From: Candidatus Cloacimonadota bacterium
Lineage (GTDB): Bacteria; Cloacimonadota; Cloacimonadia; Cloacimonadales; TCS61
Length of the DNA stretch: 64,000 nucleotides
Assembly: GCA_034660955.1 (NCBI GenBank)
Contig: JAYEKK010000226.1
Coordinates: forward strand, 1,966 to 65,965
Direction: 5' to 3'
The notes beneath the pieces were generated by a model that saw only the letters and a program-made list of their open reading frames with translations, was not told where the DNA came from and made no database searches. This document shows positions 3,853 through 46,564 of the stretch, piece by piece. Numbering within the stretch: position 1 is the first letter of the stretch; each line of letters begins with the position of its first letter. The position numbers and the translations under genes are program-made.

Positions 3853-4243
3853 CGTCAAAGAAGATATTAAGCCGAATTCTGTAAATTGCTTATTAAGCAA
3901 TCCAGTGTCTATTTCTCTAAACCGGATATTGCTATACCCGATCGGGTTCATTACTGACCGGTTTTAGCTGCCCACCCGAGAACTTAACAAGCCGGGCCGG
4001 CTCTTATTCTCCTATTTGGCATTGCACCGGATAAGGCTTTCCTAACTTCCCGATTCACACCGAGAATTGGTGGTCTCTTACACCGCCATTTCACCTTTTC
4101 CAAACATCAAATGATATCTGGTAGTTTATTTCTGTGGAGCTAGCTTTCTGTTACCAGAACTTCCCGTTAAGAAGTATCCTGCCCTTAGGTGTTCGGACTT
4201 TCCTCTCCGTGTTTCCACGCAGCAGACACTTTATCTTCTTTGA
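3853..4243 (-). ncRNA. rnpB: RNase P RNA, bacterial type A; ends approximate
   Basis: The minus strand carries GAGGAAAGTCCG (plus 4194-4205), ACAGAAA, GGTGAAATGGCGGTGTAAGAGACCACC and the 3' ACAGAATTCGGCTTA (plus 3868-3882). P1 pairing is CAAAGAAGATA / TATCTTCTTTG. The region has no credible ORF and is GC-enriched relative to its flanks. Confidence 0.85.
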
Positions 4244-19650: not shown

Positions 19651-19797
19651 TATTTATTCCTCTGCGTAAATACAGCAATAGTCTTTTTAACGTAGTTTCT
19701 CGTTTACTCATAAATGGAGATTTAATTCTCTCTTTTCTTAGCTCAGACAAGAATGTTTGAGCCACCATTGATATTATTTATTAATCATATTTCTAAA

Positions 19798-21242: not shown

Positions 21243-22796
21243 TCAATACTTAAATATATTTTCTATAATATCGGACGGAATTATTGATGCCGGTTTACGT
21301 ATTTCTGCTAGTTTTTCTACGGTTTCTCCCATTAAGTAGGAAGCTGAAACGGCTGCATTTTTCAGTGAAAGCTGTTGCCCAACAAATGAGGTGATAATAC
21401 CGGCAAGTACGTCACCGCTGCCGCCTGTGGAGAGTCCGTCATTTCCGGTTGTATCGAAAATAAATTCCGTTCCATCACAATAAATAGAAGTTGCACTTTT
21501 AAGCAGAACATTACATTTATATTTTGCTGTAAAATCCTGTAAATATTGTAGCGGATCTTTCAAAATATCCTCGATTGTAACATCGCAAAGTCGAGCAAAT
21601 TCACCGATATGTGGAGTTAGAAGAACTCTTTTGCCAGAAATGCTTTTTTTAATATTTTTATTATCAGCTAAAATATTCAAGGCATCGGCATCAAGGATCA
21701 GTGGTATATTCCATGAAGTTATTATTTGTTTTAATAAATCAGCTGTTTCTTTAGATTTTCCAATACCAGGACCAATTAGTAGAACATCCATTGAGTTTAG
21801 TTTATTGAAAAACCCCTCTTTATTTCCCCTTTCCGTCTTCGTTTCACTTCGCCGTGACAAGTCAAAGGGGAGCTTAGGAAGTGCATAAGTCATTACTTCC
21901 AGGAGTTGAGTTTCAAAAATTGTTTCTAATCCTGCTGGATGGAAAAGCGTGATCATCCCTGCGCCTGCACGAAGAGCAGCCTTTGATGCTAAAATTGCAG
22001 CACCGGTAAATCCGGGAGAACCGGCAATTATTCCAACTCTTCCATAATCTCCTTTATGGGAGAATTTGCTGCGATATGGAAATATAATATTATCACAAGT
22101 TGCTAATTTACCTTTTAATGGAAATTCTAAAAATATATTATCAGGAACACCAATATCTATAACCAATACTTCACCGCTTTTTTCTCTGCCTTCTCCTAAC
22201 AACTGACCGTACTTAATAGCAGCCATTGTAAGCGTAAAATCGGCTTTTACGGCAATTTTTGCCTGCCCGGTATTTGCATCTATTCCACTAGCAATATCAA
22301 TCGCTACAATCGTTTTACCAGAAGAATTGATTTTGTTTATTACATCAATCCGCCAGTCTTTAATTTCACCTTTTAAGCCGACTCCAAAGATCGCATCAAT
22401 TATAAGATCAAATTCAGATAGATCATTTGGTTTTTCTTCAATTCTATAAATTGGAATACAGAGTTTTTTGCATTTATGATAGTTAGAAAGTGTTTCTGCG
22501 CTCATTTTATCAATATTTCCCATTAAGAATATTTTGGGAGAATGTTGCGAATTTTGCAGGTAACGAGCAATTACAAATCCATCTCCACCGTTATTTCCGC
22601 TTCCGCAAAAAAGAGCAATTCTACTTTTTGGTGTAATAAGATCATTTATGAATTCACTGCATCCTCTGCCTGCATTTTCCATAAGTTTTTGTCCGGGAAT
22701 TCCAGCTTTTTCAATTGTAAATTTATCAATTGAATACATTTCTTCACGTGAAAGTACAAACATTTTCATTTCCTTTTTATTTTTTACACTTAGCAT
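21243..22796 (-). CDS. nnr: bifunctional NAD(P)H-hydrate epimerase / ADP-dependent dehydratase (YjeF); true start possibly 27-33 nt downstream
   Basis: GSGNNGGDGF (YjeF_N). C-terminal carbohydrate-kinase-like GPGIG, LDADAL and GGSGDVLAGI. Confidence 0.9.
   Translation of the reverse strand: MLSVKNKKEMKMFVLSREEMYSIDKFTIEKAGIPGQKLMENAGRGCSEFINDLITPKSRIALFCGSGNNGGDGFVIARYLQNSQHSPKIFLMGNIDKMSAETLSNYHKCKKLCIPIYRIEEKPNDLSEFDLIIDAIFGVGLKGEIKDWRIDVINKINSSGKTIVAIDIASGIDANTGQAKIAVKADFTLTMAAIKYGQLLGEGREKSGEVLVIDIGVPDNIFLEFPLKGKLATCDNIIFPYRSKFSHKGDYGRVGIIAGSPGFTGAAILASKAALRAGAGMITLFHPAGLETIFETQLLEVMTYALPKLPFDLSRRSETKTERGNKEGFFNKLNSMDVLLIGPGIGKSKETADLLKQIITSWNIPLILDADALNILADNKNIKKSISGKRVLLTPHIGEFARLCDVTIEDILKDPLQYLQDFTAKYKCNVLLKSATSIYCDGTEFIFDTTGNDGLSTGGSGDVLAGIITSFVGQQLSLKNAAVSASYLMGETVEKLAEIRKPASIIPSDIIENIFKY
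21825..21872. repeat. copy of a GC-rich element embedded in frame in nnr
   Basis: TTCCCCTTTCCGTCTTCG..GACAAGTCAAAGGGGAG matches roughly three quarters of positions (aligned by eye) of the intergenic 43699-43750 (TTCCCCCTTTCCGTCTTCG..GACAAGCCAAAGGGGGAC). Confidence 0.65.
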
Positions 22797-41067: not shown

Positions 41068-41126
41068 TAGAAATTATTATCCCTAATCGTCCGCAAAAAA
41101 AGTTATGTGGTAGATCATTGATTGTA

Positions 41127-41172
41127 GCTCAGACACTCTTGTCTGAGCATGCACGTTCAGGAGTGAACGTGC
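41127..41172. repeat. twin perfect hairpins (9-bp stems, 4-nt loops)
   Basis: GCTCAGACA-CTCT-TGTCTGAGC, AT, GCACGTTCA-GGAG-TGAACGTGC. Lies between convergent genes with no adjacent T-tract. Confidence 0.85.
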
Positions 41173-41176
41173 TACG

Positions 41177-43591
41177 CTACTTTAATAACAGCATCTTCTT
41201 TGTAATATATTTCTTTGGTGTTTGTAATCTATAAAAATATACTCCTGATGAAACTCTTTTGCCATTATCATCTCTGCCATTCCAGATCATTTCGCTTCTA
41301 CCCGGACTCATATAACAGTCTAATAAAGTTTTTACTTTCTGTCCTTTAATGTTGTAAATTTCTAACTTAACCTGCCCAGATTCCGGCAGATCGAAAACTA
41401 TTTTAGTTTCCGGATTAAAGGGATTGGGGAAATTTGTTAATTGGTAATCGGTCACTGGTAATTGGTCATTGGTAATTCCAACAGGATATTCATCTGCTCC
41501 AAACTCATAACAACCCATATCAATGATAGCAGTTCCGTTATTGTCTCCATCCCACACACGGTAATTATGCAAAAGATCCCATGGTGGCAAGAATAGTCCT
41601 AAAGTATCCGGTGTACCGGTATCTACGCAGGGTGAATCTAAAGTTAGTTGATACGGATAATCACCAGTTAGAAGAAAAAGTGGATCTTCGTCTATGTTGC
41701 CTTCTAACCAATTTACTATGTTAACTCCATTTTGATTATAAATTGCGCTTTCTCCACCCAAAATATTGCAATTGGAAATATCTATTTCACTAATTATTCC
41801 TTGCCCTGATTTATCAAAAAGAGCTATCTCATAATCACCGATATTTCTTAAAATATTATTTCTACAGTTTATATTCCCCTGAACCTCGATACCATACGGA
41901 GATTCATTATTAATTACAGTATTATTTGTGAATGTTAAGTTATGATCATTCAAAAGTTTAACATATATAGTACTTCTACCAAACGTAACTGAATTATCTG
42001 CAAATAAGCAATTATTGATTATTACATCTCCTACTTCTTGATTATAATAGGATATTATTAGAGCACTAGCATATCCTTCCCACAAAGTATTTACAGCATT
42101 GTTATTAATGAACTCACAATTTTCAATTATAAAATCTCCATAACCATCCGTATGTAACCCGGCTGCAGGTGCTATTGATGAACTTGAAGATGTATTATTT
42201 GAGAAAATGCAGTCTTCTGCTTTAAAAAAAGTAGTACCATTAAACTGACCGCTAGCCGATAATTGCATATCTATGTTATCTATTGTAACATTTTTCAATT
42301 GTATGTTCCCACCTGATGTAGCACTACAGATTGCACCTCCCAAATCCAAAACTATGCAATCTTGAATTAACAGATTTTCGAATTTAATAAAATCACTATA
42401 TGATATCATTATAAAATCATTATTAGTCAAACCATTTTGGAATGTCATATTTTTTATGGTTGAATTATCATAATCTGTTCCCGCATAAAAAAAAGGATAA
42501 CCACCCATTTCTCCATCGATAATAGTTGTGTTCGTATTTTCACCAATAATATTCACATTCGACTTGCAGCCAAAGGTAAGTTGTTGCTGATTTAAACTTT
42601 TACTATAAATCCCCTCCGCCAGATGGACAGTATGAGGGTTATCACTATTGGAGGCAATATTTCTAACAGCAAGATTAATTGTTTTCAATGGTTCATCTGC
42701 AGTTAATCCGGAATTTTCATCATTCCCTTCGGGAGAGACGTAGAGATCGTGGTCTATTGGTTCAATAATATGATGCAGGATATCAAAATTATACGTAAAA
42801 TTGTCATCCCCCGGATATTTCTGGGCAAAATACCTTGTTGGTTCCGCTACTGTGAAAGTATCAACTATTACTGTTTGTTCATCACTGTGTATTGATTGTA
42901 CAAACATTTCAACACCTGTAGCCGCAACATTGTTATATATACTGCATCTGTTAACAGGATCAAACTCTACTTGAGATTCACCACCAATAGCTAATCCTCC
43001 ACCAGTTTTATAAGCAAAATTCTGTTTTATAGAATTACCAGACAAAAAAACCAATCCATTGATTATTGACAAACCACCAGTAACAAAGCTAAAATTATTA
43101 ATGATATGGCAATTAATTATATCACATTGTACAAATTCTTGATAATCAGCGAATATGCTTATCCCACCACCGAAGAGCGGATCATCATCCACCCCCTGTC
43201 CATTTGTAATGGTCAAACCACGCAAACATGTGTCAGTTTCCTGTGAGATGATACTCACACAACTTGATAATCTTTGACCATCGATGATAGTAGAATATAT
43301 GTATTGTTCATCACCTGTGGTTAATTCAAGACTGGCAACTGTGATGTTTTTGCCGATGTAATCGATATTTTCGTAATATGTACCAGGATAGACGAGAACC
43401 GTATCAGTATCAGCAGAAGCATTTATTCCTTCCTGGATAGTTATAAAGTTACCTGTGCCGTCTTGTTTGATGTGGTAGGTAACGGAATTTAGCAACGAAC
43501 AAACGCTAACAAAAACGAACAGAAGAAATAAATGCCGGCTTTGCAAAATAGAAGGACATCTTCGGAAGAATAACTTGGTATTAGTATTCAT
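41177..43591 (-). CDS. secreted right-handed beta-helix (pectate-lyase-fold) protein with a T9SS-type C-terminal domain
   Basis: ATG at 43591 preceded by GGAG. Signal peptide, many beta-helix repeats (NCHIINN, NCEFINNNA, NCLFADNS, NNTVINN). CTD reads NFPNPFNPETKIVFDLPESGQVKLEIYNIKGQKV...SGVYFYRL. Confidence 0.8.
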   Translation of the reverse strand: MNTNTKLFFRRCPSILQSRHLFLLFVFVSVCSLLNSVTYHIKQDGTGNFITIQEGINASADTDTVLVYPGTYYENIDYIGKNITVASLELTTGDEQYIYSTIIDGQRLSSCVSIISQETDTCLRGLTITNGQGVDDDPLFGGGISIFADYQEFVQCDIINCHIINNFSFVTGGLSIINGLVFLSGNSIKQNFAYKTGGGLAIGGESQVEFDPVNRCSIYNNVAATGVEMFVQSIHSDEQTVIVDTFTVAEPTRYFAQKYPGDDNFTYNFDILHHIIEPIDHDLYVSPEGNDENSGLTADEPLKTINLAVRNIASNSDNPHTVHLAEGIYSKSLNQQQLTFGCKSNVNIIGENTNTTIIDGEMGGYPFFYAGTDYDNSTIKNMTFQNGLTNNDFIMISYSDFIKFENLLIQDCIVLDLGGAICSATSGGNIQLKNVTIDNIDMQLSASGQFNGTTFFKAEDCIFSNNTSSSSSIAPAAGLHTDGYGDFIIENCEFINNNAVNTLWEGYASALIISYYNQEVGDVIINNCLFADNSVTFGRSTIYVKLLNDHNLTFTNNTVINNESPYGIEVQGNINCRNNILRNIGDYEIALFDKSGQGIISEIDISNCNILGGESAIYNQNGVNIVNWLEGNIDEDPLFLLTGDYPYQLTLDSPCVDTGTPDTLGLFLPPWDLLHNYRVWDGDNNGTAIIDMGCYEFGADEYPVGITNDQLPVTDYQLTNFPNPFNPETKIVFDLPESGQVKLEIYNIKGQKVKTLLDCYMSPGRSEMIWNGRDDNGKRVSSGVYFYRLQTPKKYITKKMLLLK

Positions 43592-43698
43592 ATAATCTCC
43601 TTTTTTGCTTTGTCTTCCTGAAAAATTCTTCTTCGACATTCGACGAAGGAACTGAAGCAAATTGGTTATTAATATTTTTTATCATATAACCCCCCGTT

Positions 43699-43750
43699 TT
43701 CCCCCTTTCCGTCTTCGCCAAGCTACGTCGCGACAAGCCAAAGGGGGACT
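43699..43750. repeat. GC-rich element, intergenic copy of the family seen inside nnr
   Basis: TTCCCCCTTTCCGTCTTCGCCAAGCTACGTCGCGACAAGCCAAAGGGGGAC with terminal CCCCTTT/AAAGGGG complementarity. Confidence 0.65.
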
Positions 43751-43858
43751 CTATTGTCATCCTCGCAAAAGCGGGGATCTTAGATTCCCGATCGGAGTTG
43801 GGAATTACAATTTTTTTCCTTTTTTTGTCATCCTCAGCTTGACTGAAGATCTTTCCTT

Positions 43859-43913
43859 GTTCACAAGTTGAACTTGTGAACACAATTGCGTATGCAAGTT
43901 CAACTTGCATACG
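43859..43913. repeat. twin perfect hairpins (10- and 11-bp stems, 3-nt loops)
   Basis: GTTCACAAGT-TGA-ACTTGTGAAC (43859-43881) and CGTATGCAAGT-TCA-ACTTGCATACG (43889-43913). Confidence 0.85.
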
Positions 43914-43931
43914 AGTGACCGACCTAAAGTT

Positions 43932-43957
43932 CCCTCTCCCGATTAAACGGGAGAGGG
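43932..43957. repeat. GC-rich hairpin just downstream of the 864-aa gene stop
   Basis: CCCTCTCCCG-ATTAAA-CGGGAGAGGG followed by TTAGGGTGAGGG. Confidence 0.75.
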
Positions 43958-43969
43958 TTAGGGTGAGGG

Positions 43970-46564
43970 CTATTTCAACATTAACATTTTCTTCATTATT
44001 GTATCATCTTTAGTTGATAATTTATAGAAGTATATTCCTGATGAAACACTCTTTTCATTGCTGTCTTTTCCATTCCAAACTGTTTCATATGATCCTGCTA
44101 ACTGCTCTCCTTTAACAAGGGTTTTTACAAGTTGCCCCTTGATGTTGTAAATGCCGATCTCAACCATACCATCATCTGGAAGAGAATAAGCAATTGTTGT
44201 AGTTGGATTGAAAGGATTAGGATAGTTCGAAGTTGAAAGTTTAACTGGTAAATTATCAGACTGATCTCCACGGAAAGAGACATAATAACATTCCTGCTTG
44301 TCTTTCAAATCAATTTTCGTTGTCTCCCGATAACCGGTTTCCGGTTCGTAAACTAAATACTCCTTGTAATTTGTGTTTACTCCTCTGCTGCCATACGAAA
44401 ATTCAAATTCCAGAGTTCCGCCCTGAGAACCGGTTATATAGGCACAAATATTTGCCAGAGTATCTTGAACCACAGTAGCTCCTTTGCATTCACCATCAAG
44501 CAAAACACCGATCTCTTCAGGCATATTTTCTGGATCCAAGTCTATGTATATAGGGATGTAATCTGCTTCTTCCGTGTAGGAAAAGCTTTGGGGTTCTTCG
44601 ATAATAAACGGTTCGCTTGGTGTATTATTTGCCCATGAGAAATTTGGGATGTCTCTCACACACCAAACTACTACCATATCTCCCGGATTCAGGGTATTAG
44701 AAATATCTGGCCAAGGGCTGCTTACTGACCAGTGTTGTGTTTGTATTAGATAAATATTATCGAGATGATCGGCAAAAGCATCATAAACATGCTGGGAATT
44801 TTCCAAAAAGTAACCGATCCAGTTACCTACCGGCATTTCAGCAAGTACAGGGAATATAGTCGTATATTTACATCGGAAACCGGAGACTTCTATCTGATCT
44901 GATTCTGACTCCATTTTCACTTTAAAACCATCAGGACTAATCACTTCATAATCTCCATTTTGCCAATTTGGATAGGAATATGAAAAATTGGTTTCTTCTT
45001 GTAGACCATAATCTATACTGTTTTCTATGGGACCCCATAATTCATCAATCCTATTTGTTGTTGCAGCTTCAAAGATATCCAGAATATCAAATGAGAGCCA
45101 TGTCCAACCATCATGTGCACCATTTATCCCTTCGAATTCATAGGTTTTCATATCATGATCTTTATAATATGCACCCATATCTACGCGAGAACCGTCTGGA
45201 TCTGAAGGACTACTCGGATCACCAGTATTTATACAGGGAGATTTTTGGGTTTCTGTCCAACTAAGAGAAAATTCATAATTTAAAGGTTCTTCGAATAGAG
45301 GATCTTCATTAATGTTATTAGTTCCTACTGTTAAAGGCAAATCTGAGTAGCTTATTGTCGTTATACTCGGATTATAGTTCTCAAAGGTAATCCCGTTATC
45401 CCATAAGATGCTATTACTGATTAAAACCTCATTATTAGTTGGCATAGGGATAAAAAATTTAATAGCAACCAAGTTTTGAGTTAATGTGGTTGTAACGATA
45501 CTTGCACTGTTTGCAAGTCTAATTCCATAATTATGATTATCATAGATAACACAATCAATAATCTTTATCAAAACATAATGATAAGTTGAAGTGGTTAAAT
45601 CTACAATTCCATTATAATTATCAAAAATATTGCAATTTTCAATAACTACATTTGATGTTAAGTTGTTTTGAATAGCAGAAGCTCCATTGTTATAGATATC
45701 ACAATCATTAACATAATTCATTGCTCCATCAAAATTACTTATCCCATGATGATCATTATCATAAATAGAACAATCTGAGATAGTTCCTGATGAAAGAAAA
45801 TTGTTAATTCCCATATCATCATTATTATATATTTCACAATTCATAATATTGAAAATAGACATTTCATTGGTTATACCATCTACGTTATTAGCATATATAG
45901 AACAATCTAAAATATTAATTTCAGCATTAATACTTTTGATACCGTAGTCATTAGAAAATATATTGTTGTCATAAATAATAGGATTACATTCTGAGGGCTG
46001 AATAATTCCTCCATTAGCATAAATACCCTTTGTGTTATTATTAATAAAATTAGAATAAATATTTGGATAAGTATCCTCATAACAAACTATTCCACTAGAA
46101 GAATTATTAGAAATTTCATTATTGCAAATATCCGGTGAAGCGGAATTTCCCCTAATATAAATCCCGTCATCATTATATTGTATTTTACAATTTTGGATTA
46201 TAGGAGATCCTTGAGGACCAACTTTTATACCCATGACTCCATCCTGGATCGTGAAACCATTTATCTCAGCATAACTCTCACCCAAAATAAAATTTACAAC
46301 TCCATATGTGTTTGAGCTTGAGTCTGATATAATTGTATTCTCGACAATTGCTGAATTAGCCTTAACCAAAATGTTTTTACCAAGGAAATTTATTAGCTCA
46401 TTATAAGTACCTTCATAGACTTCTATTACGTCATCATCAACAACAAAATCTATAGCAGCTTGGATCGTAGTAAAATCTCCTGTACCATCTTGTTTAACTG
46501 TGTATGTAGTTGAAAATAACATTGAGGTTATAATCAACATTATTAGTATTAAAATCTTTTTCAT
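43970..46564 (-). CDS. secreted right-handed beta-helix repeat protein with a T9SS-type C-terminal domain
   Basis: Signal peptide, then about 12 beta-helix repeats (CKIQYNDDGIY, CNNEISNNSSSGI, CSIYANNVDGI, CEIYNNDDMGI, CSIYDNDHHGI, CDIYNNGASAI, CNIFDNYNGI, CVIYDNHNYGI). CTD reads NYPNPFNPTTTIAYSLPDDGMVEIGIYNIKGQLV...SGIYFYKL. Confidence 0.8.
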   Translation of the reverse strand: MKKILILIMLIITSMLFSTTYTVKQDGTGDFTTIQAAIDFVVDDDVIEVYEGTYNELINFLGKNILVKANSAIVENTIISDSSSNTYGVVNFILGESYAEINGFTIQDGVMGIKVGPQGSPIIQNCKIQYNDDGIYIRGNSASPDICNNEISNNSSSGIVCYEDTYPNIYSNFINNNTKGIYANGGIIQPSECNPIIYDNNIFSNDYGIKSINAEINILDCSIYANNVDGITNEMSIFNIMNCEIYNNDDMGINNFLSSGTISDCSIYDNDHHGISNFDGAMNYVNDCDIYNNGASAIQNNLTSNVVIENCNIFDNYNGIVDLTTSTYHYVLIKIIDCVIYDNHNYGIRLANSASIVTTTLTQNLVAIKFFIPMPTNNEVLISNSILWDNGITFENYNPSITTISYSDLPLTVGTNNINEDPLFEEPLNYEFSLSWTETQKSPCINTGDPSSPSDPDGSRVDMGAYYKDHDMKTYEFEGINGAHDGWTWLSFDILDIFEAATTNRIDELWGPIENSIDYGLQEETNFSYSYPNWQNGDYEVISPDGFKVKMESESDQIEVSGFRCKYTTIFPVLAEMPVGNWIGYFLENSQHVYDAFADHLDNIYLIQTQHWSVSSPWPDISNTLNPGDMVVVWCVRDIPNFSWANNTPSEPFIIEEPQSFSYTEEADYIPIYIDLDPENMPEEIGVLLDGECKGATVVQDTLANICAYITGSQGGTLEFEFSYGSRGVNTNYKEYLVYEPETGYRETTKIDLKDKQECYYVSFRGDQSDNLPVKLSTSNYPNPFNPTTTIAYSLPDDGMVEIGIYNIKGQLVKTLVKGEQLAGSYETVWNGKDSNEKSVSSGIYFYKLSTKDDTIMKKMLMLK

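Follow-up and report, generated by a model that had tools for sequence, protein, structure and literature searches.

The best-known cases of palindromic repeats lying in frame within housekeeping genes come from Rickettsia, and such repeats are commonly regarded as selfish DNA, which the host proteins simply tolerate. Here we examine a 64,000-nucleotide stretch of DNA from a Candidatus Cloacimonadota bacterium (contig JAYEKK010000226.1; hereafter the window), in which a 45-nt, GC-rich, imperfect palindrome lies in frame within nnr, the gene for the bifunctional NAD(P)H-hydrate epimerase/dehydratase, and recurs between genes. As outlined in PMC10969869, the Rickettsia palindromic elements (RPEs) of Ogata and colleagues (2000) are found in frame in housekeeping genes, with an extra peptide that is judged compatible with the fold of the host protein, and also in intergenic regions. 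To the extent of that outline, the nnr element resembles the RPEs in being palindromic, in frame in an intact housekeeping gene and read through, and in having intergenic copies as well. The RPEs as outlined there, however, are of about 150 bp, fall into several families and account for dozens of insertions per genome, whereas the nnr element is of 45 nt (30 nt net), is low-copy, with nnr as its one known genic host in the phylum; the combination of size and abundance that marks an RPE (about 100-150 bp, tens of copies, many host genes) was not found here. The likeness is one of description, and a further difference from the RPEs, within the same outline, is that the nucleotides of the element are more constrained than the synonymous sites of its host gene.

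Repetitive extragenic palindromic (REP) elements, found in proteobacteria and cyanobacteria, number from tens to hundreds per genome, are associated with RAYT (Y1) transposases and have reported effects on mRNA stability; we know of no REP feature that corresponds to the duplicated 3' arm (the second G-run) of the element described here. Like REP elements, bacterial interspersed mosaic elements (BIMEs) and REPINs, the element is a short, GC-rich, imperfect palindrome that is found between co-directional genes and often consists of two inverted units, here a left and a right one. REP elements are by definition extragenic short palindromes (PMC3116915), and while the palindrome itself is present, the low copy number and the one genic copy depart from the exclusively extragenic location and the many copies that characterize a REP element or REPIN. 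[quoted passage not shown] MITEs, however, have terminal inverted repeats and target-site duplications and derive from insertion sequences (IS), whereas for the nnr element we saw neither a parent IS nor a duplication beyond a GA ambiguity. Finally, the small dispersed repeats of Nostoc, described by Elhai and colleagues in 2008, are 21-27 nt long and reportedly appear to insert into other repeats or hairpins, with no obvious transposase; the nested 30-nt insert of the nnr element and the palindromes found between its G-runs show a similar nesting, in another phylum and with a different sequence.

We propose, with moderate confidence and on the strength of sequence comparison, that the nnr segment is an old, vertically inherited, in-frame, REP-like palindrome of two layers, the hairpin of which would be maintained as a conserved cis-element, with the peptide as a passenger. 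The outer layer would comprise a C-run, a loop, a G-run, a spacer of 5-7 nt and a second G-run, and would account for the 19-nt palindrome in the nnr gene of a large group of Cloacimonadota; units built in this way are found between genes, in multiple copies, on plasmids of cyanobacteria and Moraxella. The inner layer would be a 30-nt insert at the centre of that palindrome, giving a long form of constant length (45 nt) that is also present in a few 5' leaders.

A repeat of intergenic type in frame within nnr

Two copies of the palindrome are present in the window, one in nnr and one between genes (Table 1), and there is no third. The end motifs are found in the window at these two places only, TTTCCGTCTTCG at 21830 and 43706 and GACAAGYCAAAGGGG at 21856 and 43732, against chance expectations of 0.20 and 0.04, respectively; the end-to-end distance is equal in both copies, the intervening 14 nt differ, and the pair was also recovered independently by a repeat search (family D5). 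The first-pass annotation had taken the nnr segment for a copy of an otherwise intergenic GC-rich repeat with shared ends and a variable middle, and the matching ends, the equal spacing and the restriction to two sites bear this out. Because the window averages about 34% GC, the element, at 52-60% GC, stands out in composition. That the resemblance is due to chance similarity or to an assembly artefact is hardly credible. Only the shortness of the match speaks for it, while the chance expectations of the two ends and their identical spacing, the scores of 68-77 bits that the eleven intact long forms used to build the covariance model receive from it, and the presence of the identical long form in four independent assemblies (NCBI, ENA, JGI) all speak against it, the last point making an artefact unlikely in its own right.

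The insertion in the protein had been put at about 16 residues. The comparison with the nnr gene of L034 (loci other than the window are given L numbers) revises this figure, since the net gain is exactly 30 nt, or 10 residues, nested in a pre-existing 19-nt palindrome. The empty allele of L034, CTC CCC TTT GAA AGG GGA, is the long form minus exactly 30 nt, the window allele reading CTC CCC TTT GA[C TTG ... ACG GA]A AGG GGA at the same site. As both junctions are bordered by GA, the position of the 30-nt interior can shift by up to 2 nt, and this dinucleotide is all that the junctions repeat; the terminal inverted repeats of the element are 9 nt long. The remaining 18 nt of the nnr segment are the arms of the palindrome, which are present in short-form orthologs too. 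The short form in nnr is a perfect 19-nt palindrome, CTCCCCTTT-G-AAAGGGGAG, and the 30-nt insert sits at its exact centre. In all the DNA examined, the length of the hairpin from CCCC to GGGG is strictly bimodal, at exactly 45 or 15 nt, with no intermediates. Because 30 is a multiple of 3 and the frame is open, the insert is read through, and the frame used in nnr is open in every copy examined. The peptide first assigned to the segment, PFDLSRRSETKTERGN, is the same stretch (21825-21872) as LPFDLSRRSETKTERG, but shifted by one codon.

Two other explanations for a hairpin in this position were considered. An intrinsic terminator was rejected, as no U-tract follows the hairpin (AAAUAAAG in nnr, AAAACGG in the intergenic copy) and the terminator scanner calls neither copy; translational bypassing is not required because the reading frame is open. 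A scan of the window and six loci against Rfam 15 at gathering thresholds returned RNase P only and left the element unmatched, and permissive scans of three copies gave only noise, below the gathering scores of the families concerned.

The enclosing ORF spans 21243-22796 on the minus strand, and the start of the gene was taken at its second ATG. From there, the product is 100% identical to a 506-residue protein (P0001) of a Cloacimonadota metagenome-assembled genome (MAG), annotated as NAD(P)H-hydrate dehydratase and carrying the Pfam domains YjeF_N (PF03853) and Carb_kinase (PF01256); the segment, as first proposed, preserves the reading frame of an intact gene. PDB entry 2ax3 matches the window Nnr over residues 8-485 (E=5e-82), and an AlphaFold2 (AF2) model of Nnr, made with an alignment of 75 orthologs (mean predicted local distance difference test score, pLDDT, of 93.8), superposes on Thermotoga maritima Tm0922 (2ax3) with a TM-score of 0.88. 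An N-terminal YjeF_N epimerase domain, a C-terminal dehydratase domain of the Carb_kinase type and the Tm0922 fold place the protein in the Nnr / YjeF family. Values of pLDDT <50 are confined to residues 303-310 (SRRSETKT), between the strand at 291-294 and the helix at 315-323. LEVM and GPGIG are 39 residues apart in the window Nnr, the figure given in the first-pass annotation; most Cloacimonadota orthologs have 29 residues here (range 21-48), Tm0922 has 31 and Bacillus subtilis YxkO, by hand count, about 23; the longer stretch QLLEVM..GPGIG is of 32-59 residues among 120 orthologs, most commonly of 39-40. As had been suggested, the loop that links the LEVM strand to the helix ahead of GPGIG gains length, and the comparison of orthologs shows that the insertion is lineage-specific. 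In the model, the ten added residues, hydrophilic and predicted to be disordered, extend a surface loop without harm to the Nnr fold. The idea that the repeat is tolerated as a surface loop is upheld in so far as a stretch of low confidence lies within a confidently modelled fold; that it is merely tolerated does not fit the frozen synonymous sites and the rare codons described next.

Constraint on the nucleotides and the hairpin

Among four long-form lineages, the Nnr proteins of which are 64-91% identical, codon identity at positions with the same amino acid is 93-100% in the 16 codons of the element, whereas the same gene pairs reach only 45-68% over the remainder of nnr, and the sequence identity between nnr genes drops right at the boundaries of the element. 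The composition of the element also sets it apart from its host gene: in the long-form nnr genes it has 54-56% GC, compared with 36-39% outside the element, and a GC content at third codon positions (GC3) of 0.56-0.62, against 0.22-0.33. Nine of its 16 codons (CTC, CCC, GAC, TTG, CGG, CGA, ACG twice, AGG) are used at a frequency of 0.15 or less among their synonyms in this genome. The stem of the short form is retained in three deep lineages with identical rare codons, and in L033 it is kept through a double change of C-G to U-A and one U.G pair. The reverse is seen in the nnr gene of L001, where the element shares 83% of its nucleotides with that of the window while the host gene around it shares 93% (protein 91%, loop excluded). 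Six of the seven changes in the interior of the L001 element are G-to-A, the direction expected of unconstrained GC-rich DNA in an AT-rich genome.

For nine distinct long forms, RNAalifold predicts a 9-bp outer stem, a 3-nt bulge, a 5-bp inner stem and a 2-bp helix closing a variable loop of 8 nt; the inner stem, UUGUC/GACGG, includes two U.G pairs. When pairs are counted over 18 sequences, short forms included, 96% of the cells are paired, a figure that falls to about 60% once the partner strand is displaced by 1-3 columns. In the outer stem, three pairs show changes on both sides (11 cells), and none of 500 shuffles reaches the covariation score. The full fold would be possible only on the nnr sense strand, because the two U.G pairs would become C.A on the opposite strand. 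Because the synonymous sites are frozen, rare codons are kept and changes in the stem are compensatory, what is maintained appears to be a nucleic-acid hairpin and not the peptide. In most copies RNAfold also draws an outer helix between the second G-run and an upstream pyrimidine tract, which is unsupported because the position of the partner varies. A comparison of the locus-specific loops with nearby RNA for complementarity gave nothing above shuffled controls.

These data bear on two other ways to account for the conservation. The inserted peptide could itself be adaptive, the loop having been exapted for the activity, oligomerisation or interactions of Nnr and being conserved for that reason; indeed LSRRSETKTERG is identical in six orthologs, with 66-100% identity to the window protein. 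We consider this very unlikely, as the conservation reaches every synonymous site and the rare codons, the inserted residues are predicted to be disordered, close relatives do without the insert or hold decayed copies, and the same nucleotide element is found in non-coding DNA. Exaptation of the loop, which had been offered as an alternative to tolerance, finds no evidence as far as the peptide is concerned; it is the nucleic acid that seems to be maintained instead. The function could also lie in the DNA, the nnr copy being one of a set of sites for protein binding or recombination, or of cruciform or G-rich structures that affect replication or transcription. The outer stem is a perfect inverted repeat and its Watson-Crick covariation fits DNA equally well, the length of 45 nt is constant, the partner unit found upstream of the intergenic copy (Table 1) has four G3 tracts on the plus strand, and one copy in Pseudanabaena is antisense to its neighbours (see below). 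We nevertheless hold a DNA-level function to be improbable, since the inner helix depends on two G.U (or G.T) pairs and is thereby limited to one strand, the element is co-oriented with the flanking genes at all five Cloacimonadota-type loci (four intergenic loci and nnr), and copies adjoin ribosome-binding sites.

Alleles of the nnr loop and their descent

At the DNA level, nnr was compared between the window and 13 orthologs retrieved one by one; a metagenome scan with a single Nnr protein returned one locus. The long form is present in the window, L003, L004 and L005, and a decayed long form in L001. The short form, in which only the palindrome with a loop of 3 nt is present, is found in L002, L031, L032, L006, L033, L007 and L034 (for example, CTCCCCTTTGTAAGGGGAG and CTCCCCTTCGGAAGGGGAG), and L008 and L009 have no recognisable element. 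Moreover, a second, unrelated palindrome, GATTCCAATTCATTGGAATC (peptide DSNSLES), is found in frame between the hairpin and GAGGGG in L005 (10964-10983) and L006 (10934-10953), with degenerate versions in L001, L007 and L008. The nnr loop is a hot spot, in which two different small palindromes have collected. The single tolerated event originally envisaged gives way to a loop with long, short, decayed and absent states and a second palindromic module.

Several observations weigh against vertical inheritance of the element and against a uniform role for it. The long-form nnr proteins fall in two clades, between which identity is 63-69%, and on the nnr tree, which was built by neighbour joining and has no support values, both deep clades contain long and short alleles. 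The short form is the parsimonious ancestor because the outlying orthologs, L032 and L033, are short, and vertical inheritance then needs at least five independent and equally precise deletions of 30 nt. Repeated precise loss of 30 nt is plausible, given a hairpin with GA at its flanks and selection that keeps the frame; the alternative is that the insert was gained more than once with identical sequence. Between the window and NIOZ-UU2, 5 positions have changed in the loop of the intergenic copy but none of the 17 in the nnr loop, a contrast that leans towards either nnr copies younger than the genomes or an extra constraint on the nnr loop. In addition, the genes downstream of the intergenic copies have no common function, one of the three copies on a Pseudanabaena plasmid is antisense to the neighbouring genes, and a role of the leader type is not directly transferable to nnr because no start codon follows the G-run there.

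Part of this pattern is what would be expected if the 30-nt interior, or the whole 45-nt unit, were an active, tiny mobile or homing element that inserts precisely at the centre of palindromes, without target duplication, and is precisely excised; the identical nnr copies would then reflect recent independent insertion or allele conversion and not selection. Such an element is a real possibility, if a distinctly less probable one than the inherited hairpin. It would explain the exact presence or absence of 30 nt at the palindrome centre with an ambiguity of GA only, the two lengths of the hairpin (45 or 15 nt), the distribution of both alleles over both clades with short forms in the outlying orthologs, and the identity of the nnr loop where the intergenic loop has diverged between the window and NIOZ-UU2. 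It would also accommodate the second site between the G-runs, which holds other small palindromes (L005 and L006 in nnr; L028 and L025/L029 between genes) and looks nested, as well as the units of the outer architecture, which are multi-copy, cross-phylum and found within annotated Nostoc genes. However, no donor with a loop of the nnr type was found (0 of 7 matches among 185,579 species genomes), NIOZ-UU2 holds one other copy only, with a different loop, and there are no additional copies in 262 kb of Cloacimonadota DNA and none in the viral contigs or phage records searched. Moreover, the loops are locus-specific and conserved between orthologous sites, and no transposase was linked to the element, though no systematic search for one was made. 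If, as we favour, the hairpin is inherited, then wherever the constraint is relaxed the element would be lost by precise deletion of 30 nt or would decay through G-to-A changes.

The surroundings of nnr vary between loci. HepT-type nucleotidyltransferase/HEPN toxin-antitoxin pairs are found between nnr and a downstream cyclase gene in L004 (11574-12543), L006 (11628-12714) and L031 (2655-3340). In L004, a 69-aa fragment comes after the pair; it has a Carb_kinase match and resembles a duplicated nnr 3' end.

Intergenic copies in Cloacimonadota-type genomes

The strict pattern CCCCTTT-N15-45-GAAGACGGAAAGGGG, scanned over 185,579 species genomes, gave 7 matches, all of them intergenic. Six are on low-GC, Cloacimonadota-like contigs, one of which is binned as Armatimonadota. 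The remaining match (L027 1272-1328), in a Phycisphaerae MAG of 47% GC, has the long-form core, a 5' arm that is 12 nt longer and no trailing G-run, and is either a cross-phylum copy or part of a mis-binned contig. The 30-nt inner layer was seen only in Cloacimonadota-like MAGs and in this one Phycisphaerae MAG. The covariance model, run over 262 kb of Cloacimonadota DNA, found no members beyond the known copies (2 in the 64 kb of the window, none in a further ~200 kb); the repeat is low-copy in Cloacimonadota and not an abundant family.

A second G-run (RGGGG(G)TT or GGAGGTT) is present 7-61 nt downstream of the hairpin in all ten Cloacimonadota-type copies (6 loci), against a background of 0.018 per 80 nt, and in L026, L028, L030 and the intergenic copy of the window an ATG or GTG follows it after 2-10 nt. 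Where intergenic sites are orthologous, 40/45 (window and L028) or 44/45 (L026 and L030) positions of the element are identical, with upstream spacers that are unalignable. The sequence of the loop is locus-specific and the nnr copies are identical across genomes, which argues for inheritance by position.

In Cloacimonadota, nnr is the only genic host found, although the peptide-based census does not establish that other genic copies are absent: a concatenated six-frame query and a six-frame profile gave nothing at E<=10, and a 31-aa query against 1.8 billion representative proteins returned only two unrelated repeat proteins. A scan of viral contigs with the 16-mer CGAAGACGGAAAGGGG gave 14 matches, which we judge to be due to chance because the partner arm is missing in all, and none was found in phage records. 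In L025 and L029 only, both of MAG CSMAG_1570, the block formed by the element and an extra hairpin is bounded by an 8-nt direct repeat, GGTTTAAA, which resembles a target-site duplication.

Two further observations concern these loci. An intergenic hairpin in L009 (15670-15720) has the same inner core (GCTTGTC-N14-CGAAGAC) within a different outer stem (TATCCT / AGGATA), and the 30-nt interior, judging from this sequence, may occur within other palindromes. About 60 nt upstream of the element are conserved between L024 (3512-3580, minus strand) and L028 (382-470, minus strand), as AACTCTTCRTCGWATGCC..TTGYAAGAATTC..CCTCAGAGAGACARAGAAT, interrupted in L028 by a small hairpin, ACGCCAAAGGCGT; this stretch may be a shared promoter or leader, or belong to a larger repeat unit.

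Relatives of the outer unit in other phyla

When plasmids were searched by BLAST with the copy of L026 as query, one Pseudanabaena plasmid was found that carries TTCCCCCTTTGCAAGGGGGAATTAAAGGGGGTT in three places. This sequence is a short form with the spacer and second G-run as in L026, and, with the interior of L026 removed, the two have in common the arm CCCCCTTTG as well as a stretch of 19 nt, GGGGGAATTAAAGGGGGTT. Between the Pseudanabaena unit and the nnr short form, CCCCTTTGTAAGGGG, 14 of 15 positions match, and the element has all the parts of the cross-phylum unit, namely a C-run, a short loop, a G-run, a spacer of 5-7 nt and a repeated G-run. A mirror-image unit, CCCTCCCTAACCCTCCCCTTGCAAAGGAGAGGG, is found 12-13 nt upstream of the Pseudanabaena short form. 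More generally, on plasmids of cyanobacteria and Moraxella such a left unit precedes the short form at a distance of 10-15 nt, forming a doublet of about 85 nt in plasmids of Nostoc, Dolichospermum and Moraxella, and it occurs alone in replicons of Photobacterium, Aeromonas, Pelobacter and Azospirillum. The doublet is also found within two annotated coding sequences, for a type I polyketide synthase on a plasmid of Nostoc sp. C052 (L039 401-484) and for a TIGR03032-family protein on a plasmid of Nostoc sp. ATCC 53789 (L040 401-484); in both, the frame is open across the doublet, giving ...ITPLNPPFPRGEKEKSSSLPFTRGGLGWGN... Neither Rfam nor the searchable literature gave a name or a description for the C-run/G-run palindromic units, and the matches to the sequence string were V5 epitope-tag sequences.

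A possible role for the hairpin

If the hairpin is maintained as a cis-element, it would act on the sense strand, as an mRNA stem-loop. Its CCCCUUU tract, which we take to resemble the anti-Shine-Dalgarno sequence of 16S rRNA, would sequester the Shine-Dalgarno-like AAAGGGG tract that adjoins the second G-run. The second G-run in leaders is often the likely ribosome-binding site, and the element may then have a role in ribosome access or mRNA stability. A more specific version of this idea, which we regard as doubtful, is that the hairpin and its trailing G-run constitute an undescribed structured cis-acting RNA used in Cloacimonadota 5' leaders, in which CCCCUUU could pair with either G-run and the conserved bulge and internal loop could serve as a recognition site; in nnr this RNA would also be translated, with selection on the structure of the RNA and not on the peptide.

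Features of the window

The features of the element and of its relatives in the window are collected in Table 1. The intergenic copy is located in the leader of a gene for a beta-helix protein sorted by the type IX secretion system (T9SS), and the partner unit is found about 180 nt upstream of it. A scan of this intergenic region for sigma-70 promoters found none.

Table 1. Coordinates of nnr, of the two copies of the palindromic element and of associated features in the window
Feature	Position	Strand	Description
nnr (bifunctional NAD(P)H-hydrate epimerase/dehydratase), host gene	21243..22763	minus	506 aa; ORF, Pfam, PDB match, AF2 model
Long-form palindromic element in nnr	21824..21872	minus	sense CTCCCCTTT-GAC-TTGTC-ACGGCGAAGTGAAACGAA-GACGG-AAAGGGGAA; encodes LPFDLSRRSETKTERG; covariance model 74.8 bits
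30-nt interior, missing from the short (empty-site) allele	21832..21861	minus	encodes the extra 10 residues; comparison with L034
Second G-run of the nnr copy	21811..21818	minus	GAGGGGTT; codons E-G-F (GAG GGG TTT); 8 nt past the hairpin
Intergenic long-form copy	43700..43748	minus	sense TCCCCCTTT-GGC-TTGTC-GCGACGTAGCTTGGCGAA-GACGG-AAAGGGGGA; covariance model 73.9 bits
Second G-run of the intergenic copy	43688..43695	minus	GGGGGGTT; 2-3 nt ahead of ATG (43685-43683)
Partner palindromic unit, duplicated C-rich arm	43930..43970	minus	sense CCCTCACCCTAACCCTCTCCC-GTTTAAT-CGGGAGAGGGAA; compared with Pseudanabaena, Nostoc and Moraxella copies

Other GC-rich hairpins pack the spacer at 43750-43930, namely TGTCATCCTCGCAAAAGCGGGGATC (43755-43779), GATTCCCGATCGGAGTTGGGAATT (43783-43806) and TGTCATCCTCAGCTTGACTGAAGATC (43826-43851), and a terminator-like hairpin (43913-43889, minus strand) follows the upstream T9SS gene. 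A 34-aa ORF (43581-43685, minus strand; MIKNINNQ...RRLYEY) begins 2-3 nt after the GGGGGGTT run; its end overlaps the likely ATG (~43591) of the T9SS beta-helix protein (MNTNTKLFF...), and it may be a coupled upstream ORF. Elsewhere in the window, similar hairpins, GCTCAGACA...TGTCTGAGC, are found at 19741-19768 and 41121-41148, directly past the stops of two minus-strand genes, and probably represent a shared repeat of the terminator type. A full-length bacterial class A RNase P RNA is located at 3853-4241 (minus strand; 241 bits).

Significance

The nnr case places an in-frame palindromic repeat in a phylum other than that of Rickettsia and involves a much smaller, low-copy element, the outer unit of which resembles palindromic repeats of cyanobacteria and proteobacteria that also occur within annotated genes. 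With an insert at the centre of an older palindrome and a second palindrome in the same loop, small hairpins may be targets for further small insertions, even within genes. The nucleotides of the element outlast those of the surrounding enzyme in conservation, which points to a possible functional nucleic-acid structure hidden in a coding loop. Should the hairpin prove to be a functional RNA, nnr would be a compact case of overlapping RNA and protein information; should the element prove to be mobile, few known mobile units would be as small.

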